A DNA stretch of 8,085 nucleotides, from the IMG/VR virus record IMGVR_UViG_2534682338_000005; one strand, written 5' to 3'. The DNA is from a virus (lineage: Duplodnaviria; Heunggongvirae; Uroviricota; Caudoviricetes). Under the pieces are notes generated by a model. The model saw nothing but the letters and a program-made list of their open reading frames with translations, made no database searches and was not told where the DNA came from. Shown here piece by piece: positions 1 to 8,085 of the stretch. How positions within the stretch are numbered: position 1 is the first letter of the stretch; every line of letters begins with the position of its first letter. The translations under genes and the position numbers were made by a program.

Positions 1-1
1 A

Positions 2-1297
2 TTAATTTTTCATTGCTTCGTTATGGGGCATGGTTGGGGCAAACTCGCTTAACTGTGTATTTAACAAAGCTACCTGTGCATTATTGTTTTCAGACATCCA
101 TTTTCCGTATACCTGAAATACCATTTGCGCATCTGCATGGCCCATCTGGTTTGCTATAAATGCCGGGTTAGCACCAGCTGTCAGCGACCAGCAGGCATAA
201 GTATGTCTCGACTGATATGATTTTCGATGGCGGAGTCCGGCACGTTTTATCGCTGCGTCCCACATCTGCCTTATTGAGTCAACGGTAAAATGGTCACCAT
301 AATTTTTTACTCTCGCTGACACTTCAGGTTGAAAAACAAAGGTGCATTTATGTTTTTCTGTTCTGCCATACTCTCTGAGGTGAACATCAATGATATGCTC
401 TTTGCTCAGTCTCGTTAATGTCATCTGACTCCGGAGAGCGTCGATTGCTGGCTTAATAAGATGAATGACCCGATTGGTTCCCGCCTGTGTTTTTGGGACC
501 GTGAAACGGTCTTTTGCTAAATTTCTCCTGATCATCATTGTTCCATTTTTCAGATCTATGTCCTCCCATCCAAGTGCACACAGCTCACCAGGGCGAACGC
601 CAGTATAAACAGAAACACACCATAAATTTTTGGCTTGCTGATTTCTGCACGCATCGATAAGACGGATGAATTCCTCCCGCGAAAGAGGATCCGGAATGGT
701 TCTTGATTCCTTTAATGGCGAGATCCCCTTAAACGGGTTATCTGCCAGGTAACCGTTATCAACACCAAACTGGAACACGGCGTTAAGATTTGTCATGTAA
801 TTATTTACAGTTACAGCCGATCTCCCTGGTTGTGTAACAATATAGTTACTTTTGGGGATCTGGTATCCAGTCAGTAGCTCTTTACGAACCTCCAGTAATT
901 TTTCTTTATTAATCGATGAGGCAAGATTTTTTTCACCGATTATGCTCAGGATATTTTTGATGACGGCACGGTATGTGTTGAGTGATGTTTTTGCGACTTC
1001 AGTTTCTTTCAGTGCCAGAAATTTTTCAGCCAGTTCTTTTATGGTTAAATCTTGTCGGGCCTCACCAAATTTTTCCAGATTGCGTGAGGAGGGAAACTGT
1101 TTTGCATAGTCGAAAACACCAGTTTTTATTGCGTAACAAACAGAGGCGCGTAGCTCACCTGCAACGCGCCTGTTTTTTGCTGTGTCAGGAACCCCCAGGT
1201 TTTCCCTGACTCTTACGCCTTTATAAACAAACCAGATACGTAATTTCCCTCCATGGTTTTCCACGCCTGTCGGATATTTCATTTCAACTTCTCTCAT
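2..1297 (-). CDS. int: Tyrosine-type site-specific integrase (prophage Int)
   Basis: 431-codon ORF ending with TAA at 2-4. N-terminal arm-type region (GGKLRIWFVYKGVRV...), C-terminal catalytic core with conserved Arg (TGVRPGEL), H-x-x-R (SRHTYACW) and a Tyr near the C-terminus (VFQVYGKW). Last gene of the leftward operon, directly after xis. Start is ambiguous: ATG at 1297 has no Shine-Dalgarno (SD); an in-frame ATG at 1282 (MKYPTG...) is an alternative. Confidence 0.93.
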   Translation of the reverse strand: MREVEMKYPTGVENHGGKLRIWFVYKGVRVRENLGVPDTAKNRRVAGELRASVCYAIKTGVFDYAKQFPSSRNLEKFGEARQDLTIKELAEKFLALKETEVAKTSLNTYRAVIKNILSIIGEKNLASSINKEKLLEVRKELLTGYQIPKSNYIVTQPGRSAVTVNNYMTNLNAVFQFGVDNGYLADNPFKGISPLKESRTIPDPLSREEFIRLIDACRNQQAKNLWCVSVYTGVRPGELCALGWEDIDLKNGTMMIRRNLAKDRFTVPKTQAGTNRVIHLIKPAIDALRSQMTLTRLSKEHIIDVHLREYGRTEKHKCTFVFQPEVSARVKNYGDHFTVDSIRQMWDAAIKRAGLRHRKSYQSRHTYACWSLTAGANPAFIANQMGHADAQMVFQVYGKWMSENNNAQVALLNTQLSEFAPTMPHNEAMKN

Positions 1298-1316
1298 TAG
1301 TTAGTGTGGCTTTTAG

Positions 1317-1568
1317 TCAAGTAAGATGACGTCTTGGTCTTGCTGATGCCTGGCGCTCAATCCAGCGATCAATTTCTTCCAGGTTGTAAAAGCATGGACT
1401 GTTATCCCATGGCATACCGTCATGAGCGACATGCTTATATTCCCTTCCTTCCATAAACGATTTTTCCCGGGCCTTTTTTAACGTACCTTTTTTTATTCCT
1501 TTCAGCGCAATTAACTGCTCTTCGGATACCCATTTGCCGGGAGAGACAATCATGATTACTTCGCTCAT
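1317..1568 (-). CDS. xis: Excisionase-like small DNA-binding protein (Xis/DUF1233-type)
   Basis: 83-aa ORF immediately upstream of int on the same strand, stop only 19 nt before the int ATG. Purine-rich SD (AAGAGATAAAGAAA) before the ATG at 1566-1568. Size, position and the WVSEEQLIALKGIKKGTLKK motif fit small prophage excisionases. Family assignment is from memory, not a search. Confidence 0.75.
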   Translation of the reverse strand: MSEVIMIVSPGKWVSEEQLIALKGIKKGTLKKAREKSFMEGREYKHVAHDGMPWDNSPCFYNLEEIDRWIERQASARPRRHLT

Positions 1569-1640
1569 CGATTTCTTTATCTCTTACATCAGACGAGCGC
1601 CGGTTGCAGAATACCAGTCACAACCGGCGACAGTTGAACA

Positions 1641-4112
1641 TTAAGAATCAGCCTGACTCGGGATCAGTTTTTGCCAGATAGCTGAAACGTATTTTGCCTG
1701 GTAACGGGCGTCATCAAGTGCATTATGGCGCTCACCTTCGAATGGAATAGCCGTTCTGGCATCGAAGTCTATGGCTTTCCCCAGCTCAACGATTGTGCGT
1801 ACATCGCGATCGTTGTAGTAACGCCACGGGCAGGGGATCCCCTGCCGTTCGTATGAACGGCGCAAAATCGTGTTGTCGAAGTTGGCTCCATTTCCCCAGA
1901 CATGAACAAAAAATTCACCGGAGTTTTCGTCGATAAATTCCCGCAATTGTAACAGTGCATCATCTAACGGGATTTCATCGGTCATAATGGCAGATTGCGC
2001 TTCGCGTGATTGTTTAAGCCACCATTTAATGGTGTCCCGATCAATGACTCCGCCAGCAGTTTCCAGATCGATAGTCTTACTAAATTCCGGTCCCATATCT
2101 CCGGTTTGCGGATCGAAAAATATTGCACCTATTGAGATAATCGGGGCATCGGGATTTTTTCCCATGGTTTCAAGGTCGATCATCAGATGAATCCCCGCTC
2201 TGCTGGTGGATGTGATTTCGTGATGACCGTTCACCTTAATTGAGTGATCTGCCGTCTCGCCAGTTTCATTATCGCTATTGTGATGCTGATTGCCGCCAGT
2301 GTTCTCCTTGTGTGGATGTTCAGCGCCTTCCATTTCCTCCGGATCATCTTCCTGAACTTCAACCTGATACTCTTCATCGAATGTTTCTTGGTATGTTGCG
2401 TCGCCCATCACCGCGCCACAATCAGGGCAGTTGCCGCCGCCGGTCTGACCGCAGGCGGTGCAGACTTTTTCCACTTCCTGTTGCGCCACTGGTTCAGGCT
2501 GTTTCGTTTCTGGCTCGTTTTGTAACGCATTTGTGCTGTTTTGTTCCGCTTTTTGGTAGTTCCGTTCCGATTCATGCTGGTTCTGGTTCACAGAATCGCG
2601 GGTCTGGATCCCCTTAACCCATTTCGGATCATTCGGGTCACTAATCTCTTCAACAAATTCACCACGTGATGCAGCAAGCAACTTATCGGCGTCAGGCTGG
2701 CTGATATTGGCTGCCTGCATAATTTTGTTTACTTCGTCAGCGGTAACTTTTATCGGCTCTGGTTGTTCTGAATCTTCAGCGGTATCTACATTTTGCGGTA
2801 AGCCCGTGTATGTGCCATTTTTTCGGGCAAAATATTCTTCTTTTGTGATTTCAGTGGCGCCAGCAGCCAGTGCCTTATCCAGACCAGAAAGTTTGTTTGC
2901 GCGACCGTATTTTTCTCCGTCCTTATCTGCGAAGAGGAAATAGAACGGCCCCTCACGCTCTACAGATGGTTCAGCTTCCGGCGCGGTTTCATTTTTTGGG
3001 ATATCAGATACCTCAGTTTCCACTGCATCAGTTTGTGTTTCTGATGACTGGAGAACATCAACAGTGCCCAGGTCTGTTTCTTCATTCTCAAACACGCCCT
3101 TTGTCGTCAGGTATTCGCAGATATATTTGTTCAGTGCTATGGGATCTTTGTGAATGTCGATCGGACGCTCACGGACAAGGCCAAAAATAGTCTGGCGGTC
3201 GTAGCGAAGGGCATCAGGCTGTTTGCGCATTGATGCCGAGATACGCTTCCAGTCTTCGCGGTCGTTGTCGATAACTTCTTTTTTTGCCCAGCGATGGATG
3301 CTGCCGTCAATGTTTCCGGCATCCACATCACCAGGCCAGAGAGCGTAGGCCAGTTCGTCATCCAGTGTTTTCCATGTCTGCTTGTATTCGCGATGAATGG
3401 CAGCAATGACCGGGCTGATTTTTCCTGTTGAATTTTCAGTGTACTGTTGATTGGCTCTGGCGCGGGCGAGATCAACAACAGACGTGTATTTTCCGGTTTC
3501 CTTGCGTTCACCTTCGCGACGTTTTTTCCAGATGCGCATCTCTGCCTGAATTTCGGGCCATTTAGCACCAGGAATACATTTATGCTTAACCCACCCAATG
3601 GCGTGCAACTTAAGCTCCGGATACATGGCGTTAACTTCTGGCATTTTCATCAACGCTTCAACGATATGTCCGTCGAATGTTGCCATGTCTTCCTGCAACA
3701 ATTCCTGTGCGCTAATAACCATATCAACGGTGATGTTTTCACATGTGTCGAACTTAACCATGACAGCGTTCTGTACTTCAGGGGCCAGCTTGTCAAAAGT
3801 GACGTTCATCGGATCGGATTCAGTCTCAACCGGGACAAAAGAAGCAGACTCCTCATCCCAGCGGTTTTCCTGCATATATTCAGCATCCCATGAATCGAGG
3901 GCAGGGCGGGGTATGCCAGGTTTATCCTCGCAGACAATAAATTTATAAGCGCAGTCCTGAGCAGCCGGATAATGTTCCAGGAACTGCCAGTGAAATTTTG
4001 CTCGAGCACGGCGTTCGTCGCCAGCTTCAATGGCTGTGGCTACAGCCACAGCGCCTTCTTCCCTTGTTGCCAGTTCGTCAGGAATAGCGGCGCAAATAAA
4101 GACTTTACTCAT
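1641..4112 (-). CDS. Large prophage exonuclease-like protein (annotated in relatives as exodeoxyribonuclease VIII-like); C-terminal DEDDh/DnaQ-like 3'-5' exonuclease domain, central zinc ribbon, acidic linker
   Basis: 823-codon ORF, ATG at 4110-4112 with GAGG 10 nt upstream, stop TAA at 1641-1643. C-terminal ~180 aa carry DEDDh motifs: Exo I MIDLETMG (encoded ~2160-2181), Exo II FFVHVWGNGANFDNTIL, Exo III ERHNALDDARYQAKY. Central CTACGQTGGGNCPDCGAV is a C-x2-C...C-x2-C zinc ribbon (~2406-2460), flanked by acidic low-complexity sequence. Sits where lambdoid phages carry exo; likely the intact form of what is truncated as ydfE in K-12 Qin. Confidence 0.85.
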   Translation of the reverse strand: MSKVFICAAIPDELATREEGAVAVATAIEAGDERRARAKFHWQFLEHYPAAQDCAYKFIVCEDKPGIPRPALDSWDAEYMQENRWDEESASFVPVETESDPMNVTFDKLAPEVQNAVMVKFDTCENITVDMVISAQELLQEDMATFDGHIVEALMKMPEVNAMYPELKLHAIGWVKHKCIPGAKWPEIQAEMRIWKKRREGERKETGKYTSVVDLARARANQQYTENSTGKISPVIAAIHREYKQTWKTLDDELAYALWPGDVDAGNIDGSIHRWAKKEVIDNDREDWKRISASMRKQPDALRYDRQTIFGLVRERPIDIHKDPIALNKYICEYLTTKGVFENEETDLGTVDVLQSSETQTDAVETEVSDIPKNETAPEAEPSVEREGPFYFLFADKDGEKYGRANKLSGLDKALAAGATEITKEEYFARKNGTYTGLPQNVDTAEDSEQPEPIKVTADEVNKIMQAANISQPDADKLLAASRGEFVEEISDPNDPKWVKGIQTRDSVNQNQHESERNYQKAEQNSTNALQNEPETKQPEPVAQQEVEKVCTACGQTGGGNCPDCGAVMGDATYQETFDEEYQVEVQEDDPEEMEGAEHPHKENTGGNQHHNSDNETGETADHSIKVNGHHEITSTSRAGIHLMIDLETMGKNPDAPIISIGAIFFDPQTGDMGPEFSKTIDLETAGGVIDRDTIKWWLKQSREAQSAIMTDEIPLDDALLQLREFIDENSGEFFVHVWGNGANFDNTILRRSYERQGIPCPWRYYNDRDVRTIVELGKAIDFDARTAIPFEGERHNALDDARYQAKYVSAIWQKLIPSQADS

Positions 4113-4205
4113 TTTGTTTTAACCTCATGACAGATTTAAGGATGAACAAATCCCTGCCATTGCTGGCATATAAGAATGAAACCGGATATTTATTACGGAA
4201 CTGTT

Positions 4206-4397
4206 TTAAAGACCTGCCGGGATTTCGATATTATCCTGGTGAATAACTTTATCGACCGGGTAACAGTTACCGGGAATTTTCTGTTCGGTTGCTGCAGTCA
4301 TACACTCCTGCATTGTCCTGTGAACACTGACTGCAATATCAACTGGCTCTCCGGAAACAAGAAAAACTGTCAGAACAAGCGCAAATGCTGAATTCAT
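4206..4397 (-). CDS. ydfD: YdfD-like small protein with N-terminal hydrophobic/TM segment (Qin prophage lysis-associated protein family)
   Basis: 63-aa ORF (MNSAFALVLTVFLVSGEPVD...), ATG at 4395-4397 preceded by AAGGA with 8-nt spacer. Its start overlaps the dicB stop in an ATGA arrangement (4394-4397), the same 4-nt overlap and 63-aa size as dicB-ydfD in K-12. Longer ORF-track start at 4451 rejected. Confidence 0.8.
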   Translation of the reverse strand: MNSAFALVLTVFLVSGEPVDIAVSVHRTMQECMTAATEQKIPGNCYPVDKVIHQDNIEIPAGL

Positions 4398-4582
4398 TGT
4401 GCACATCCTTTTGGCATCAGACGTAAACGAGCCAGCATTGAAACAATGCATATTTTATTTAATAGCTCCCGTTCTTGTTTTCTCTTGTTAATGGCATCTT
4501 CAGTAAATACAGGGTTACTGATAGTGACACCAATTTCAAAACAACCTTCAGACGTATTAACGTTTGGTAATAACGTTTTCAT
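4394..4582 (-). CDS. dicB: DicB cell-division inhibitor (MinC-dependent FtsZ-ring inhibitor, Kil analog)
   Basis: 62-aa ORF MKTLLPNVNTSEGCFEIGVTISNPVF...LMPKGCAQ, matching my recollection of E. coli Qin DicB in length and sequence. ATG at 4580-4582 preceded by GAGGA with 7-nt spacer. Located downstream of DicF in the leftward early operon. ORF-track start at 4687 rejected (no RBS). Confidence 0.9.
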   Translation of the reverse strand: MKTLLPNVNTSEGCFEIGVTISNPVFTEDAINKRKQERELLNKICIVSMLARLRLMPKGCAQ

Positions 4583-4751
4583 TATCGCGTCCTCAACAAT
4601 GAATTTTGTGATGCAGTGCCTGGTGCCTCCAGGTGACGTTAACCAGTTAACAATTAACGCCGGATACAGAGAATCCACCCATAACACTGTTTTTGGTTTT
4701 AACTGTTCCGCGTGCGCTTAGCCGCATTCACCGCATCACAAAATTCACTTT

Positions 4752-4794
4752 AAAAACGGCGGCAGAGCAGTCACGGAGTAAAACTGATACCGCC
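4752..4794 (-). terminator. Intrinsic terminator forming the DicF 3' end
   Basis: On the minus strand, GGCGG (4790-4794) pairs with CCGCC (4758-4762) around an internally structured loop, followed directly by a 5-U run (4752-4756). Confidence 0.7.
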
Positions 4795-4809
4795 AAACGT
4801 CACCAGAAA
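4752..4809 (-). ncRNA. dicF: DicF small RNA (Hfq-dependent antisense regulator of ftsZ and other mRNAs)
   Basis: Minus-strand sequence TTTCTGGTGACGTTTGGCGGTATCAGTTTTACTCCGTGACTGCTCTGCCGCCGTTTTT matches my recollection of the ~53-nt DicF RNA and ends in its terminator hairpin plus U-run. Position between ydfC-like and dicB is as in the Qin dicB operon. Ends are approximate (+/- 3 nt). Confidence 0.8.
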
Positions 4810-5084
4810 ATTGATAACAGAGGGCGTTGCAGCGGGGTTGTCACTTAAGCGTATGGTCAACCTGACAACTCGGTGTCCTCAACGGGGAAGGAATAACCCC
4901 GCCATACTTACCGCCGCGCCATTTCGCGGGTTGCCACAACCGGAAGCGCACGGTCGAATTAAATTTAACGACACCGTACAGTGAGACGAACTTCGCCGTG
5001 CGCTTTCGTGTTGTGTGCCTGCTTTTAACCACGTCAGGCGAGGTGGTATCCTTCTTATTCCGAATAACCAAGAAGGAAATCTAT

Positions 5085-5285
5085 ATGACTAAAGAAGAAT
5101 TTGTCTCTTATATTTTTGATAAAACGGTTGAAATGTATGCCGCTACTTACGGGTCCTGTAATCCTCTGAATAAACCAGAGGGGAAAGATGATTTCGACAA
5201 AATTTACCGCTTCTTGGAGGACCGCTATATCAAAAGGTTAGAGGACGCAGGGATCAAATCCCCAGTGAAGTCACCATTGTCCTGA
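5085..5285 (+). CDS. Hypothetical small acidic protein (66 aa), convergent to the leftward operon; candidate only
   Basis: ATG at 5085-5087 preceded by a strong SD AAGGA (5073-5077) with 7-nt spacer; ORF MTKEEFVSYIFDKTVEMYAATYGSC...KSPLS. AT-rich coding sequence next to a GC-rich structured region. 3' end overlaps the ydfB/C-like 3' end by 32 bp on the opposite strand. No homolog recognised and no clear promoter. Confidence 0.3.
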   Translation: MTKEEFVSYIFDKTVEMYAATYGSCNPLNKPEGKDDFDKIYRFLEDRYIKRLEDAGIKSPVKSPLS

Positions 5286-5619
5286 GAACTTGCAGGACGT
5301 CATGATCGTAACTTCCATCCAAACCGCGACGGCAAATTGCTTCTCGTATTACCGGAAGCAGTTCGCTGGAAATCTCGGTGCATATTTCACCTGATAATAC
5401 GCCTGGCTCAAGTGAGAATATTGGTGAACTTACGGTCTTGGTCTCGACAGTTTCAGAGTCAGTGCCAACATTATAAAGCTCAACGAAAGCGGTCTTGATT
5501 TTCCGGGCCAGATCTTTTGCTGGCTCGCTTGCAATATCTTTCCCGATTTCTCGCAGCACAGAATGCAATGTATGAGCTGCTGTTTTCTGTACATCAGACG
5601 GTAAATCTTTAAATTCCAT
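5254..5619 (-). CDS. YdfB/YdfC-like prophage protein (single 121-aa ORF spanning what is split as ydfB + ydfC in K-12 Qin)
   Basis: ORF with ATG at 5617-5619 (MEFKDLPSDVQ...) preceded by GAGG with 6-nt spacer; a further upstream ATG (5629-5631) overlaps the ydfA-like stop (TGATG) but lacks an SD. Stop TGA at 5254-5256. Sits at the ydfB-ydfC position after ydfA-like; total span (~366 bp) matches the ydfB+ydfC span I recall. Confidence 0.7.
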   Translation of the reverse strand: MEFKDLPSDVQKTAAHTLHSVLREIGKDIASEPAKDLARKIKTAFVELYNVGTDSETVETKTVSSPIFSLEPGVLSGEICTEISSELLPVIREAICRRGLDGSYDHDVLQVLRTMVTSLGI

Positions 5620-5630
5620 CGTCAGCCTCA

Positions 5631-5783
5631 TCAGTCAGTGTTTCTGGCTAACCAGCAACGCGCGCCAGATTCGGTTTTAAACGTTTTGCTTTTGGTATAT
5701 GTCATCGCGGTGAACGTACCGTCCTGGTTGGGGAACACGCCACATACCAGAGATTCGCTGTTGCCAAGATCGATAGTATCCAT
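5631..5783 (-). CDS. ydfA: YdfA-like small prophage protein (DUF1391-type)
   Basis: 50-aa ORF MDTIDLGNSESLVCGVFPNQDGTFTAMTYTKSKTFKTESGARCWLARNTD. ATG at 5781-5783 preceded by GAGG with 5-nt spacer. First gene downstream of the operator/promoter region that follows the repressor gene, the position of ydfA in Qin. ORF-track start at 5837 rejected. Confidence 0.8.
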   Translation of the reverse strand: MDTIDLGNSESLVCGVFPNQDGTFTAMTYTKSKTFKTESGARCWLARNTD

Positions 5784-5861
5784 GCTGACCTCATTTCCCC
5801 TTAACGCCGGGGTCGCGGAACTGTTTGCTGAGAACACCGTGCGGTGTCTTGATGGAAAGTA

Positions 5862-5879
5862 ATTTAGAATAACCTAACA
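5862..5879. promoter_or_regulatory. Operator-like site, imperfect (ATTTAG-N6-CTAACA), leftward early promoter region
   Basis: Same 6+6+6 architecture as the perfect palindromes at 5898-5915 and 6409-6426. Lies over a candidate leftward promoter (minus strand TTGCCT-17 nt-TAAATT) upstream of the ydfA-like gene. Confidence 0.45.
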
Positions 5880-5897
5880 TGAGAGGCAAGTGTTTTT

Positions 5898-5915
5898 TGT
5901 TAGATTGATCTAACA
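5898..5915. promoter_or_regulatory. Operator, perfect palindrome TGTTAG-ATTGAT-CTAACA (candidate DicA-like repressor site, OL-like)
   Basis: 9-bp perfect inverted arms TTGTTAGAT / ATCTAACAA (5897-5916) about 40 bp downstream of the repressor stop and upstream of the ydfA-like gene. Same half-sites and spacing as the site in the divergent promoter region. Confidence 0.65.
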
Positions 5916-5951
5916 AAAAGAGTGGGCGCAACTAATCACTTGAAAAGAATG

Positions 5952-6359
5952 TTATTTTATTGATTTATTTTTACGCGCTTTAAGCATTTCTTCGAAGAGT
6001 TTGTTGAAGTTTTCTACTCTTGCGCGCATTTCAGACAGCAAGGCTTCCTGCTCGGAAGATGGAAGAGCATCGAATAATTCGATCAATTCTTTGTGGTTGG
6101 GAGTTAGCTCTGTTTCCACATGAAGTTCTTGTGCAGGCACTGGTGCCTTGTCTTCGTCACCAAACATTAGCCATGTAGGTGAGCACTTCAGAGCATCCGC
6201 TAAAGCAAACAATCGTTTTCCGACTGGCTGGGTTTCGTCTCTTTCCCATTGTGAAATTGTGACGTGAGCAACTCCAGCGAGGCGCGCAGCTTCTCGTTGT
6301 GTTAAGCGTAATTCTTTTCGTCGCGCCAGAACTCGCTGGCCTAGGGTTCTTGTATCCAT
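5952..6359 (-). CDS. dicA: DicA-like HTH (XRE-family) prophage repressor, CI functional analog
   Basis: 135-aa ORF, ATG at 6357-6359, stop TAA at 5952-5954. N-terminal HTH_XRE signature (LRLTQREAARLAGVAHVTISQWERDETQP), and the C-terminal segment CSPTWLMFGDEDK...EMRARVENFNKLFEEMLKARK resembles E. coli DicA as I recall it. Divergent from the Cro-like dicC with operators between them. Confidence 0.88.
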   Translation of the reverse strand: MDTRTLGQRVLARRKELRLTQREAARLAGVAHVTISQWERDETQPVGKRLFALADALKCSPTWLMFGDEDKAPVPAQELHVETELTPNHKELIELFDALPSSEQEALLSEMRARVENFNKLFEEMLKARKNKSIK

Positions 6360-6377
6360 AGTTAGGTAATTCTAATT
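6360..6377. promoter_or_regulatory. Operator-like site, imperfect (AGTTAG-GTAATT-CTAATT), adjacent to the repressor start
   Basis: Same 6+6+6 architecture as the consensus palindrome; immediately upstream of the dicA-like ATG in the divergent intergenic region. Confidence 0.4.
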
Positions 6378-6381
6378 TTTC

Positions 6382-6409
6382 TTGACTTAGGTATCCCGCG
6401 CACAATAAT
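6382..6409 (+). promoter_or_regulatory. Candidate sigma-70 promoter for dicC-like/early-right operon (pR analog)
   Basis: -35 TTGACT (6382-6387), 16-nt spacer, -10 AATAAT (6404-6409). The perfect operator begins at the 3' end of the -10, so repressor binding would occlude the start site. Confidence 0.55.
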
Positions 6410-6426
6410 GTTAGAAAAGTCTAACA
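6409..6426. promoter_or_regulatory. Operator, perfect half-sites TGTTAG-AAAAGT-CTAACA (OR-like)
   Basis: Inverted repeat with identical half-sites and spacing to 5898-5915; overlaps the -10/+1 of the rightward promoter, 13 nt upstream of the dicC-like ATG. Confidence 0.65.
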
Positions 6427-6439
6427 AGAGGGGGCTTTG

Positions 6440-6667
6440 ATGCTTAAAGTTGACGCAATTACTTTTTTTGGCAGCAAAACAAAGCTTGCCAATGCCGCAG
6501 GAGTGAGACTGGCAAGTGTTGCTGCTTGGGGGATACTGGTTCCTGAAGGTCGCGCGATGCGTCTACAGGAGGCATCTGGCGGGGAGCTTCAGTATGATCC
6601 CAAAGTTTATGACGAATATCGTAAGACGAAGCGGGCGGGGCGGTTGAACAATGAAAATCACTCCTGA
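6440..6667 (+). CDS. dicC: DicC/YdaS-like Cro-type regulator
   Basis: 75-aa ORF from ATG 6440 (ORF track starts at TTG 6437), SD GAGGGGG 5 nt upstream. Sequence MLKVDAITFFGSKTKLANAAGVRLASVAAW...LQEASGGELQYDPKVYDEYRKTKRAGRL is typical of small DicC/YdaS-type regulators. Divergent from the repressor. Confidence 0.85.
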   Translation: MLKVDAITFFGSKTKLANAAGVRLASVAAWGILVPEGRAMRLQEASGGELQYDPKVYDEYRKTKRAGRLNNENHS

Positions 6668-7172
6668 ACAGGCTCGTGAGGCTCTGGATGCCTGGATATG
6701 TCGACCAGGAATGACACAGGAGCAGGCGACGATATTAATCACTGAAGCATTCTGGGCTTTGAAAGAGCGCCCGAACATCGATGTTCAGCGTGTCACATAT
6801 GAAGGTGGCGCGGTTGATCAGCGAGCGCTTAGCGTTAATCGAGTGAAGATATTCGAACGCTGGAAGGCTATCGACACCAGGGATAAGCGTGAAAAGTTCA
6901 CAGCGCTAGTGCCTGCAATTATGGAGGCTATCCGGATTAGTGATTTCAGGTTGTATCGTGAGATCAGTGATGGAAAAAGTATTACGTACATGATCGCCGG
7001 GTTAAATAAAGAATATGGCGATGTGGTGGAATCCGGACTGCTTTTTGCAGATCCTGCCGTTGTAGATCGTGAAACTGACGAACTTATAGAAAAAGCAATT
7101 GCTTTCAAGCTTGCGTATCGACAGCAATACCAACAAAAAGCTGGATGGAATTATGAGTCTTCTTTTTGCTGA
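6651..7172 (+). CDS. YdaT-like protein at the cII position (putative CII functional analog / regulator)
   Basis: 173-aa ORF whose ATG (6651-6653) overlaps the last 17 nt of dicC-like, suggesting translational coupling. Internal segment DKREKFTALVPAIMEAI resembles the YdaT family as I recall it. Sits between the Cro-like and replication genes. Confidence 0.65.
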   Translation: MKITPEQAREALDAWICRPGMTQEQATILITEAFWALKERPNIDVQRVTYEGGAVDQRALSVNRVKIFERWKAIDTRDKREKFTALVPAIMEAIRISDFRLYREISDGKSITYMIAGLNKEYGDVVESGLLFADPAVVDRETDELIEKAIAFKLAYRQQYQQKAGWNYESSFC

Positions 7173-8085
7173 ACGCCCACTGGTTATAAACACGCAGCTG
7201 GCAATGAAAATCGGCTTAAACGAAGCCATTGTTTTGCAACAACTGCACTACTGGTTGAGAGATACCAACTCCGGTATGGAATGTGATGGTGTTCGCTGGA
7301 TTTATAACACAACGGAACAATGGCTGGAACAGTTCCCATTCTGGTCAGAGTCAACGTTAAAGCGCGCGTTTGCAAGTCTGAAAACGCTGGGGCTTTTGCG
7401 TTGTGAAAAGCTCAATAAATCAAAGCGCGATATGACCAATTTCTACACGATCAACTATGGGAGCGAGCTTTTAGATGGTGGCAAATTGAACGAATCCATC
7501 GGTTCAAAATGCGCCGCTCCATCAGGTCAAAATGACACGATGGAAGAGGTCAAAATGAAACGCTCCATTGGTTCAAAACGATCCAATGTCATCGGGTCAA
7601 AATGGCCTGATGATCTTACAGAGAATACAACAGAGATTACTACAGAGAATAAAAACACTTTTCGTCCGGAAGCTTCGCAACCGAACCCGCAGACGACTGA
7701 ACAGGATTTTTTAACCCGGAACTCCGACGCGGTTGTGTTTAGTGCGAAAAAACGCCAGTGGGGTAGCAGGGAGGATTTGGCGTGTGCGCAGTGGATCTGG
7801 GGGCGGATCGTGGGTCTCTACGAACAGGCAGCCAGTGATGATGGCGAGATCATGCGACCAAAAGAGCCTAACTGGACTGCCTGGGCCAATGACGTGCGCA
7901 CAATGCGGATGCTGGATGGCAGAAGCCACAGACAAATTTGCGAAATGTTTGGTCGGGTTCAGCGAGATCCATTCTGGGTAAAAAACATCATGAGCCCGTC
8001 AAAGCTCCGCGAAAAATGGGACGAACTGGTCATCCGCCTGGGACGTTTGATCTTACCCAGCAATAGTGGACACGCGGCTAAGTGA
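7153..8085 (+). CDS. Replication initiator protein (lambda O-like replisome organizer; iteron-binding N-terminus, C-terminal helicase-loader-interaction-like domain)
   Basis: 310-aa ORF from ATG 7153 (MSLLFAERPLVINTQLAMKIGLNEAIVLQQLHYWL...), stop TGA at 8083-8085. Contains an internal iteron array coding for the repeated SIGSK/VIGSK linker, as oriLambda does within gene O. ORF-track TTG start at 7099 rejected. Start overlaps the upstream gene by 20 nt. Confidence 0.85.
   Translation: MSLLFAERPLVINTQLAMKIGLNEAIVLQQLHYWLRDTNSGMECDGVRWIYNTTEQWLEQFPFWSESTLKRAFASLKTLGLLRCEKLNKSKRDMTNFYTINYGSELLDGGKLNESIGSKCAAPSGQNDTMEEVKMKRSIGSKRSNVIGSKWPDDLTENTTEITTENKNTFRPEASQPNPQTTEQDFLTRNSDAVVFSAKKRQWGSREDLACAQWIWGRIVGLYEQAASDDGEIMRPKEPNWTAWANDVRTMRMLDGRSHRQICEMFGRVQRDPFWVKNIMSPSKLREKWDELVIRLGRLILPSNSGHAAK
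7501..7604. repeat. Iteron array (candidate phage replication origin) inside the replication initiator gene
   Basis: Five direct repeats of an 11-bp core with 23/23/23/24-bp spacing: GGTTCAAAATG (7501), AGGTCAAAATG (7524), AGGTCAAAATG (7547), GGTTCAAAACG (7570), GGGTCAAAATG (7594). A possible degenerate sixth copy lies at ~7478. Followed by an A/T-rich ACAGAGAAT-repeat stretch (7611-7660). Confidence 0.7.

Follow-up and report, generated by a model that had tools for sequence, protein, structure and literature searches.

The stretch of DNA that we analyzed (the window; 8,085 nucleotides) carries on its minus strand, at positions 4206 to 4809, what is with a probability of about 0.93 an intact dicF-dicB-ydfD segment belonging to the dicBF operon of a lambdoid prophage of the Qin family. 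The present analysis showed what the parts are, how they are ordered, in which operon context they lie, and which RNA structures are conserved. The molecular activities assigned to them below all come from literature on the near-identical K-12 genes; the precise site at which RNase III cuts toward dicB and any influence that the leader has on translation of dicB are inferred. The cassette itself is already known, being an ordinary copy of a well-studied Qin-type E. coli module that blocks cell division. The original prediction had named DicF, DicB, and YdfD; all three names proved correct when compared with Rfam, Pfam, and K-12 alignments, with matches far beyond chance, and the limits proposed for the cassette coincide exactly with the stop codon of ydfD and the 5′ end of DicF. 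Since it amounts to a correctly annotated textbook module of prophages, the finding itself matters little. The features of the cassette and its flanks are as follows.

4206-4397 (-): ydfD, 63 aa; Pfam DUF1482 (PF07358); identical DNA is called "lysis protein YdfD" in RefSeq
4394-4582 (-): dicB, 62 aa; Pfam PF05358; identical DNA is called dicB in RefSeq
4583-4756 (-): dicF-dicB spacer, 174 nt, the dicB leader, with five helices (folding and covariation)
4598-4618 paired with 4729-4749 (-): basal helix of the leader, about 20 bp (fold)
4619-4633 (-): invariant hairpin of the leader
4752-4756 (-): U5 run completing the DicF intrinsic terminator (read from the sequence)
4757-4809 (-): DicF sRNA, 53-nt form; Rfam RF00039; 52/53 identical to K-12 b1574
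4758-4794 (-): DicF terminator hairpin (Rfam structure line and folding)
4795-4809 (-): single-stranded 5′ tail of DicF (fold)
4810-5026 (-): conserved noncoding segment ahead of DicF (pre-DicF), identity to K-12 about 98% (alignment)

Identity of DicF, DicB, and YdfD

DicB matched PF05358 over residues 1 to 62 of 62 with a score of 136.8 bits (gathering threshold, 27; E = 1.9e-40), and the protein is identical to K-12 DicB at 62 of 62 positions (100%). A Shine-Dalgarno sequence, GAGGA, lies 8 nt upstream of its ATG. We dropped a 97-aa, GTG-started extension of the gene (4394-4687) in favor of the in-phase internal start of the 62-aa protein, which is known in K-12. DicB acts via MinC and ZipA and blocks ManYZ-dependent entry of phage DNA (PMC6832061, PMC5069750). 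Since the activity was published for an identical K-12 protein (PMC6832061), the DicB encoded here would be expected to exert the same MinC-dependent division block and the same inhibition of ManYZ. The functions that the original prediction had attached to DicF and DicB, namely, repression of ftsZ, action through MinC, and phage resistance involving the mannose transporter, were therefore already in print in these two papers.

YdfD, which the original prediction had called a small membrane protein, has a hydrophobic N terminus, scored 92 bits against PF07358 (gathering threshold, 25), and is identical to K-12 YdfD at 62 of 63 residues, with A6 here and V6 in K-12. The coupling of dicB to ydfD that had been claimed could be read directly from the sequence: in the ATGA at 4394-4397, the ydfD ATG (4397-4395) overlaps the dicB TGA (4396-4394). 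The proposed link between YdfD and lysis had also been published: the K-12 protein, described as membrane associated, lyses cells by binding IspG and is antagonized by DicB (PMC8835842). Downstream, between ydfD and ydfE, a consensus scan listed a weak terminator-like hairpin with a T-rich tail at 4155-4168 (-), which we rejected as a real terminator because it folded no better than shuffled sequences (z = −0.7).

The scan with Rfam RF00039 that had been suggested as a check on DicF gave a match at 4757-4808 (-), covering model positions 1 to 52 of 52, with 72.5 bits (gathering score, 48; E = 6e-15). When the 53-nt K-12 dicF was aligned to 4809..4757, the single difference was the last base, C in K-12 and G here, just before the U run. 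The RNA folds with an energy of −16.6 kcal/mol into a 3′ hairpin followed by U5 and a single-stranded 5′ tail, as expected for the family. This arrangement bears out the claim that a terminator gives DicF its own 3′ end, and termination at this site in K-12 is attributed to Faubladier 1990 by papers that cite it (PMC5069750, PMC10448788). A generic promoter and terminator scan of the window did not list the terminator because its stem is bulged. With the dicBp homolog before it and dicB 174 nt after it, DicF lies inside the dicB operon.

DicF represses ftsZ (PMC6832061, PMC5069750). The duplex between DicF and the K-12 ftsZ leader has a calculated energy of −38.9 kcal/mol, a value that 29 of 300 shuffled DicF sequences equaled. 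Because this energy does not discriminate, the case for pairing rests on the 52/53 identity to K-12 DicF, an RNA that has been tested, and by that identity the DicF of the window would be expected to act as an antisense RNA to ftsZ. Upstream of DicF, the pre-DicF segment contains a long hairpin at about 4934-5019 (fold z = −4.6 in the window and −3.0 in K-12). A 190-nt DicF species that depends on RNase III has been described (PMC10448788), and its length would place its 5′ end near 4941-4946, in the 3′ arm of this hairpin. A 76-aa ORF in the same region, 4841-5071 (-), was set aside: it has no Pfam match and is absent from the RefSeq annotation, and the region is accounted for as a structured RNA.

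The prophage family that hosts the cassette is usually defective and DicF is unannotated in the RefSeq rows, as might be expected if this copy were a decaying remnant with nonfunctional parts. The missing annotation is no sign that the RNA is absent, however, because of its Rfam score, which is far above the threshold. Moreover, both ORFs are full length and identical or nearly identical to proteins of demonstrated activity, and the promoter, the operators, the Shine-Dalgarno sequences, and the ATGA coupling are intact. Decay is a highly improbable explanation, one that is already contradicted at the level of sequence.

The early operon and the state of the prophage

The window has the layout int-xis-ydfE-ydfD-dicB-dicF...dicA<->dicC-ydaT-O, which is the Qin arrangement without the IS2 deletion of K-12. 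The features outside the cassette are listed here.

2-1282 or 2-1297 (-): integrase, intact (PHROG; RefSeq)
1317-1568 (-): excisionase, intact (PHROG; RefSeq)
1641-4112 (-): ydfE, full length, 823 aa, downstream of ydfD (Pfam PF16473, 225 bits; phrog_2082)
5085-5285 (strand opposite to the operon): convergent 66-aa ORF, which together with the 121-aa ORF replaces ydfB/ydfC
5254-5619 (-): 121-aa ORF in place of K-12 ydfB/ydfC (phrog_33007, 275 bits)
5631-5783 (-): ydfA homolog (DUF1391), first leftward gene (Pfam PF07151, 92.7 bits; RefSeq)
5861-5889 (-): putative dicBp-like promoter, from alignment to the K-12 dicA-ydfA intergenic region; −35 TTGCCT at 5884-5889, 17-nt spacer, −10 TAAATT at 5861-5866
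5862-5879: DicA-type operator with 2 mismatches, overlapping the −10 element
5898-5915 (no strand assigned): perfect DicA-type operator, TGTTAG-N6-CTAACA, upstream of the promoter
5952-6359 (-): DicA-type repressor, 135 aa (Pfam HTH_3, 54.2 bits; DNA homology to K-12 dicA)
6409-6426: perfect DicA-type operator between dicA and dicC
6440-6667 (+): DicC/P22-Cro-type regulator, first in the rightward operon (Pfam P22_Cro, 45.8 bits)
6651-7172: YdaT-like gene, rightward operon (Pfam YdaT_toxin)
from 7153: replication protein, rightward operon (RefSeq annotation in strain Combat13F7)

The placement of the cassette in a leftward early operon agrees with this map, in which a lambdoid immunity region with DicA and P22-Cro/DicC homologs around operators adjoins the dicBp-like promoter. 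The operator motif TGTTAG-N6-CTAACA matched three times in the window compared with 0.17 expected matches, and none of 200 shuffled sequences reached three. The generic promoter scan did not list the dicBp homolog; like the DicF terminator, it was established by homology and folding rather than by that scan.

The closest well-studied system is the dicBF operon of K-12 Qin (ydfABC-dicF-dicB-ydfD-ydfE; b1571-b1577), which has the same gene order and orientation. Over the stretch that starts 220 nt ahead of DicF and runs to the IS2 junction of ydfE (window 3346-5026), the two are 98.3% identical, and homology extends to the dicBp promoter and to the layout of the DicA/DicC immunity region. Farther to the right, the dicC region has 86.6% DNA identity to K-12 dicC-ydfX, whereas DNA identity is no more than about 78% for dicA and ydfA, and the region of the 121-aa ORF showed no homology to K-12 in a DNA alignment. 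Since the segment from the promoter to pre-DicF has the 121-aa ORF and the convergent 66-aa ORF where K-12 has ydfB/ydfC, read-through into DicF could be lower. The left arm also differs. In K-12, an IS2-associated deletion took out the counterpart of window 1162-3345 and left ydfE truncated by IS2; here, IS2 is absent and ydfE, xis, and int are complete. The integrase-excisionase segment shows 99% identity to what remains of K-12 intQ, and the C terminus of YdfE has an Rv2179c-like 3′-5′ exoribonuclease domain.

The original prediction had described this as a complete prophage early region. The early region is indeed intact, but the prophage is defective in genomes with identical DNA. Strain Combat13F7 is 100% identical over window 1-8047, and its prophage is devoid of head and tail genes and carries a frameshift in Q; the CP53 element has IS5 and IS903 insertions. 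In both, the locus adjoins rspB, at the Qin site between rspB and ydfJ that is also used in K-12, and dicB and ydfD are annotated. As the genomes with identical DNA carry a defective Qin prophage, "complete" applies to the early region only. No complete inducible prophage was found in the 8-kb window, outside which the genes that would mark one (morphogenesis, lysis, functional Q) are located.

These observations bear on whether the cassette is a working phage takeover module at all. It might instead be a domesticated host asset in a defective prophage that is never used lytically and is expressed only now and then or in response to stress, serving phage exclusion, growth arrest, and metabolic rewiring. 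The fixed position and the defects of the prophages in the 100%-identical genomes are consistent with domestication, as is the wide distribution of the 1-kb cassette region, which is present in 4,750 of 5,426 complete E. coli genomes (88%), at a median of 2 places per genome. Induction in stationary phase and under stress has been reported in K-12 (PMC10448788), and domestication was argued for by Balasubramanian et al. in 2016, when no phage genome was known to carry dicBF (PMC5069750). Now, however, the whole cassette is found in eight phage genome records with 95 to 99.7% identity and the same order, int-xis-exo-ydfD-dicB-DicF, and the window has an undamaged early region along with an intact integrase and excisionase. 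We give domestication slightly less than an even chance, and it and a role as a phage module are not mutually exclusive.

Among the phage relatives, Escherichia phage Tritos (OV696610), HannyBb, PhiR42_1, and mEp460_ev081 have cassettes 97 to 99.7% identical to this one and the same left arm (int-xis-exonuclease-ydfD-dicB-DicF). In contrast to the window, Tritos and its relatives are complete phage genome records of 45 to 49 kb. The existing annotation of Tritos (46 kb) includes DicF, as "DicF antisense sRNA, inhibits ftsZ"; this phage has a different immunity region (CI/Cro/Rha), and upstream of its DicF there are ydfABC-like genes. The undamaged left arm (int, xis, full-length ydfE), both here and in the phage relatives, bears on what form the operon had in an ancestral phage.

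The structured leader of dicB

The spacer between dicF and dicB is far more structured than expected by chance. Its minimum free energy is −71.4 kcal/mol compared with −45.9 kcal/mol in shuffled sequences (z = −6.8). Among 37 variants, double changes occurred in 20 of the 43 base pairs, compared with 8.4 ± 2.0 in shuffled sequences (0/500 as many), and 97.2% of cells were paired in the alignment of the leader subfamily. A 72-nt form of DicF has a 3′ end made by RNase III (PMC5069750), and this published end maps to 4738, the center of the basal helix.

In read-through transcripts, then, a DicF 3′ end is also produced by RNase III; the original prediction had left the structured spacer unremarked.

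The spacer resembles the STnc100 (RF02076) and PasD RNAs. The Rfam STnc100 model aligned to it over its full length with 34.5 bits (E = 1e-4), which does not reach the gathering cutoff of 47; the corresponding K-12 spacer scored 34.4 bits and that of Rac-SA53 scored 43.8 bits, and a search at the gathering threshold gave no match at the loci of the leader subfamily. On account of this score, we ruled out membership in STnc100 and regard the spacer as related. A 21-nt core, TCACCNGGAGGCACCNGGCAC, is common to the spacer and genuine STnc100 copies (57 to 161 bits), and the spacer shares with STnc100 and PasD a 5′ GGUGAAU motif, a variable covarying hairpin, an invariant UCACCNGGAGGCACCNGGCAC hairpin, and a closing helix. 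Unlike those RNAs, it lacks its own promoter, has a far longer basal helix, and sits between a terminator and an ORF; classical STnc100/PasD copies stand alone, often 3′ of clusters of phage tRNAs.

The full-length alignments and the shared core would also be expected if the spacer were an independent gene for a trans-acting, STnc100/PasD-type sRNA, with its own promoter and targets, rather than a cis-acting leader or RNase III site. STnc100 and PasD are reported to be Hfq-associated sRNAs, and many classical copies have their own TTGAC-N17-TAnAnT promoter. In the leader subfamily, however, the DicF terminator, together with the 5′ arm of the 20-bp helix, occupies the position of that promoter; a generic scan found no minus-strand promoter at the spacer; and the score is below the gathering threshold. 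In the 16 leader copies that were inspected, the nearest plausible start codon follows the invariant hairpin by 36 to 56 nt, although two of the ORFs are doubtful. Finally, the location of the RNase III end of 72-nt DicF inside the basal helix argues for a processed read-through transcript and against an independent sRNA, which we therefore consider unlikely.

Proposed course of events and related leaders

The K-12 literature and the features mapped here are consistent with the following course of events. In a lysogen, a DicA-type repressor bound to the TGTTAG-N6-CTAACA operators would close the leftward promoter at 5861-5889. After derepression, transcription would proceed through ydfA, the 121-aa ORF, pre-DicF, and DicF in that order. 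Some transcripts would end at the DicF hairpin and U5, and trimming of their 5′ ends by RNase E would yield the 53-nt DicF, which with Hfq would pair with the mRNAs of ftsZ (and manX, xylR, and pykA). Read-through transcripts would enter the 174-nt folded leader, whose 20-bp basal helix would be cut by RNase III, generating the 3′ end of 72-nt DicF and, we infer, a dicB-ydfD mRNA with a short 5′ untranslated region of about 27 nt. DicB (62 aa) would bind MinC and bring it to ZipA at midcell, where Z rings would dissolve; through the same MinC interaction it would block ManYZ, so that lambda-type phages would be excluded. YdfD (63 aa), its translation coupled to that of dicB through the ATGA overlap, would inhibit IspG and lyse dividing cells, an effect that DicB would counteract.

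Other small division inhibitors are likewise encoded in leftward early operons. In phage lambda, the kil gene of the PL operon, located between the genes for recombination and the immunity region, encodes a small, FtsZ-directed, ZipA-dependent division inhibitor. It is not known to have sequence similarity to the cassette, an associated sRNA, or a requirement for MinC. In Rac-type prophages and Stx phages (Rac-SA53, Shigella phage 75/02 Stx), the kilR region occupies the same position in the early-left operon as the cassette and has a DicF-like terminator hairpin followed by the same structured leader (80 to 90% identical), and its small FtsZ-directed division inhibitor begins about 40 nt past the invariant hairpin. 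KilR (73 aa) is nonetheless unrelated to DicB, no ydfD follows it, and the sRNA-like hairpin upstream of it is without the 5′ seed of DicF and, at 41 bits, falls under the Rfam threshold for DicF.

In other phages, too, the leader was found ahead of kilR, tciA, and tiny hydrophobic ORFs. One tentative reading, to which we give well under an even chance, is that the spacer is a portable, covarying leader, distantly akin to STnc100/PasD, that is cut by RNase III ahead of toxic or host-targeting ORFs and serves as a joint for toxin swapping. Its users may be lambdoid and P1-like phages, and the ORFs that it precedes may be DicB, KilR, TciA/TerB, and hydrophobic peptides of 36 to 40 aa. Cutting of the basal helix may free the toxin mRNA from a stable RNA that lies upstream of it (DicF, a DicF-like hairpin, or tRNAs) and may also fix the 5′ end of that mRNA. 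We found no papers linking STnc100 or PasD to dicB or kilR leaders in the literature searched. The conserved fold of the leader offers a physical reason for the DicF end that RNase III has long been known to produce, and it connects dicB, kilR, and tciA through a common RNA control element. The leader may double as a recombination joint at which toxins are exchanged; one locus contains a DicF-leader-kilR hybrid, which may exemplify such an exchange.

Identity of the cassette

The original prediction placed a DicF sRNA gene, dicB and ydfD at 4206-4809 in the leftward early operon. An Rfam scan bore out DicF, and Pfam matches together with identity to the K-12 genes bore out dicB and ydfD; the positions claimed for all three elements were exact. 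The proposed ATGA coupling of dicB to ydfD and the terminator at the 3' end of DicF were likewise present.

Elements of the cassette
4757-4808 (-): DicF, Rfam RF00039, 72.5 bits (gathering score, 48), E = 6e-15, whole model covered
4758-4794 (-): DicF terminator, bulged hairpin followed by U5, from the Rfam structure and folding
4394-4582 (-): dicB, 62-codon ORF, Pfam DicB, 136.8 bits
4394-4397 (-): ATGA overlap, ydfD ATG on dicB TGA, read from the sequence
4206-4397 (-): ydfD, 63-codon ORF, DUF1482 (YdfD family), 92 bits

The 53-nt dicF of K-12 (b1574) aligned to 4809..4757, with the last base (G here, C in K-12), directly preceding the run of five U, as the sole difference. DicB is identical to its K-12 counterpart, and YdfD is one residue apart (A6 here, V6 in K-12). 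A generic terminator scan of the window did not return the DicF terminator. The RefSeq feature tables of the genomes examined list dicB and ydfD and omit the DicF ncRNA, despite its 72.5-bit Rfam score.

By each testable defining feature, the cassette belongs to the dicBF operon family of Qin, the cryptic lambdoid prophage of E. coli K-12. It differs from the K-12 locus only in the absence of an IS2 deletion, the replacement of ydfB/ydfC by another ORF pair, and a few point differences. The cassette was already known; the observation is confirmed, and its interpretation is supported with small qualifications.

DicF represses translation of ftsZ and other mRNAs, manX among them, and knowledge of its RNase III end dates from 1990. 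Every activity considered here is taken from studies of the identical or nearly identical K-12 genes. The dicBp promoter is repressed by DicA, with relief via the Rem antirepressor, stress, or stochastic switching (PMC10448788). DicF is excised from a polycistronic RNA: the 5' end is made by RNase E in the 53-nt form and by RNase III in a 190-nt form, and the 3' end arises by intrinsic termination or, in read-through transcripts, by RNase III, which yields a 72-nt form (PMC5069750). DicB binds MinC and brings it to ZipA at midcell, blocking Z rings; its interaction with MinC also underlies inhibition of ManYZ, which makes cells ~100-fold resistant to lambda-type phages (PMC6832061). YdfD, which binds IspG, lyses dividing cells, an effect counteracted by DicB (PMC8835842). 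The suggestion that the cassette doubles as a superinfection-exclusion module matches the DicB-MinC-ManYZ result (PMC6832061); as that resistance is published, the hypothesis is not new.

Immunity region and prophage state

Positions 3346-5026 are 98.3% identical to K-12 Qin, from ~220 nt upstream of dicF to the IS2 interruption of ydfE, and positions 1-1161 are 99% identical to the intQ remnant of K-12. The counterpart of 1162-3345 is absent from K-12 Qin through an IS2-associated deletion; the window therefore represents the Qin left arm before that deletion. The genes int, xis, and ydfE are followed by ydfD, dicB, and DicF. Upstream of the cassette, the same strand carries a 121-aa ORF, a ydfA homologue (DUF1391), and a DicA-type HTH repressor; the opposite strand encodes a P22-Cro/DicC-type regulator, a YdaT-like protein, and a replication protein.

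Elements of the left arm and immunity region
2-1282/1297: integrase, intact
1317-1568: excisionase, intact
YdfE: full length, 823 aa; 3'-5' exoribonuclease domain (Rv2179c-like) at the C-terminus
5861-5889: promoter, -35 TTGCCT, 17-nt spacer, -10 TAAATT; repressor-ydfA intergenic region aligned with K-12 dicBp
5898-5915 and 5862-5879: palindrome copies at the leftward promoter
6409-6426: palindrome copy between dicA and dicC

The palindrome, TGTTAG-N6-CTAACA, occurs three times in the window (0.17 expected by chance), and its copies are presumably DicA operators. The alignment with dicBp and the palindromes, alongside the DicA/DicC-type regulators, therefore support the assignment of the cassette to a leftward early operon under a lambdoid immunity region.

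A 66-aa ORF at 5085-5285(+) (phrog_34441, WP_000159335.1) converges on the 121-aa ORF at 5254-5619(-) (phrog_33007) with a 32-nt overlap. K-12 Qin has ydfB/ydfC at this location; Rac-SA53 has a similar convergent pair (rac10/rac11) in the same place. Such convergence could disturb transcription running leftward into DicF.

A 1-kb query around the cassette matched 4750 of 5426 complete E. coli genomes, at a median of two places per genome (maximum, ten), and at least 80% of it was covered in 3772 of those matching. RefSeq names the products of identical DNA "cell division inhibition protein DicB" and "lysis protein YdfD". In strains CP53 and Combat13F7, whose DNA is 100% identical, the element lies between rspB and ydfJ, which is the Qin site, and is defective: it lacks head or tail genes, has a frameshifted Q, or carries IS insertions. 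Thus, the description of a complete prophage early region holds for the early region and not for the prophage as a whole.

Eight phage genome records (Tritos, HannyBb, PhiR42_1, mEp460_ev081, and four vB_Eco phages) likewise carry the cassette, at 95-99.7% identity. Tritos has the same int-xis-exonuclease-ydfD-dicB order, annotated with "DicF antisense sRNA, inhibits ftsZ". As of 2016, dicBF was known from no phage genome (PMC5069750), so the idea that the cassette sits here in its ancestral context is reasonable; such a context is already visible in public records.

Relatives of the dicB leader

The cassette check yielded, as a by-product, an observation on the 174-nt leader between DicF and dicB. 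In Rac-SA53 and Shigella phage 75/02 Stx, the same sequence (80-90% identity) immediately precedes kilR and follows a DicF-like terminator hairpin; in P7 and D6, it precedes tciA/terB and has tRNA genes on its upstream side. Scanning viral contigs for the invariant 21-nt hairpin TCACCNGGAGGCACCNGGCAC gave >100 loci. Classical copies reach 57-161 bits with the Rfam STnc100 model (RF02076; gathering threshold, 47 bits) and are often located after phage tRNA clusters. Copies of the dicB/kilR type make up a sub-family below that threshold (34.5 bits in the window, 43.8 in Rac-SA53); the leader is distantly related to STnc100. STnc100/PasD RNAs have been described as prophage sRNAs (bioRxiv 10.64898/2026.05.13.724894), and our literature search found no paper tying them to dicB or kilR leaders.

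In 16 copies inspected, the nearest plausible ORF starts 36-56 nt past the invariant hairpin and encodes DicB, KilR, TciA, a hydrophobic peptide of 36 to 40 aa, a 94-aa protein, or a 282-aa protein. Among 44 distinct leader-plus-ORF combinations, 25 have true DicF followed by DicB (one with a longer, 92-aa DicB-like ORF), 7 have KilR after a DicF-like hairpin, and one is a true DicF-kilR hybrid. The hybrid, on viral contig L117 at 4243-4415(-), has kilR in place of dicB after the leader and appears to have arisen by recombination inside or beside the leader. In Klebsiella phage Kp4865-4 (~1982-2164, minus strand), a leader of this type precedes a 40-aa ORF and a YdfD-like 64-aa ORF, suggesting a parallel cassette whose first ORF differs. 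The hairpin before the Rac-SA53 kilR leader (2653-2707, minus strand) scores 41.1 bits on Rfam DicF (cut-off, 48); it has the terminator hairpin but differs in its 5' tail and could thus be a distinct sRNA acting on other targets.

At L018 2265-3380(-), L028 3121-3798, and L011 8044-8233, the classical copies directly follow the 3' end of a phage tRNA gene cluster; L018 has four in tandem, or five with a further Rfam hit at 2678-2883. Positions 249913-250142 of the jumbo Aeromonas phage AP1 (MT713136) are 100% identical to window 4583-4812 (DicF plus leader), and Actinobacillus phage vB_Apl-pPE4 (PP818812, 5840-6004) has a Rac-type leader at 86%. These hosts are unexpected, and the records may reflect contamination or chimeric assembly.

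Structure of the leader and the pre-DicF segment

The leader (4583-4756, minus strand) folded at -71.4 kcal/mol, versus -45.9 for shuffled sequence (z = -6.8). RNAalifold on 37 distinct sub-family variants gave five helices with 43 pairs, and 97.2% of cells were paired across these variants. Compensatory double changes occurred in 20 pairs, versus 8.4 +/- 2.0 in column shuffles (20 was reached in 0 of 500); sliding the partners left 2-6 covarying pairs.

Basal helix of the leader
4729-4749 paired with 4598-4618 (-): basal helix, 20 bp, from RNAalifold and covariation

In the basal helix, 12 of 20 pairs covary, as in GAAUUUUGUGAUGCGGUG/CACUGCAUCACAAAAUUC of the window versus AGACCUUGCAAUGCAGUG/CACUGCAUUGCAAGGUCU of locus L042. 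The published 3' end of 72-nt DicF maps to 4738, the centre of this helix. We infer that the basal helix is a candidate RNase III site; a matching cut at ~4609-4611 would release a dicB mRNA with a predicted leader of ~27 nt.

The segment of 217 nt preceding DicF (4810-5026) is ~98% identical to K-12, and folding predicted a long hairpin there at ~4934-5019 (z = -4.6 in the window, -3.0 in K-12). The 5' end of the 190-nt species, placed at ~4941-4946 from its length alone, would fall in the 3' arm of this hairpin, a position that fits RNase III cleavage.
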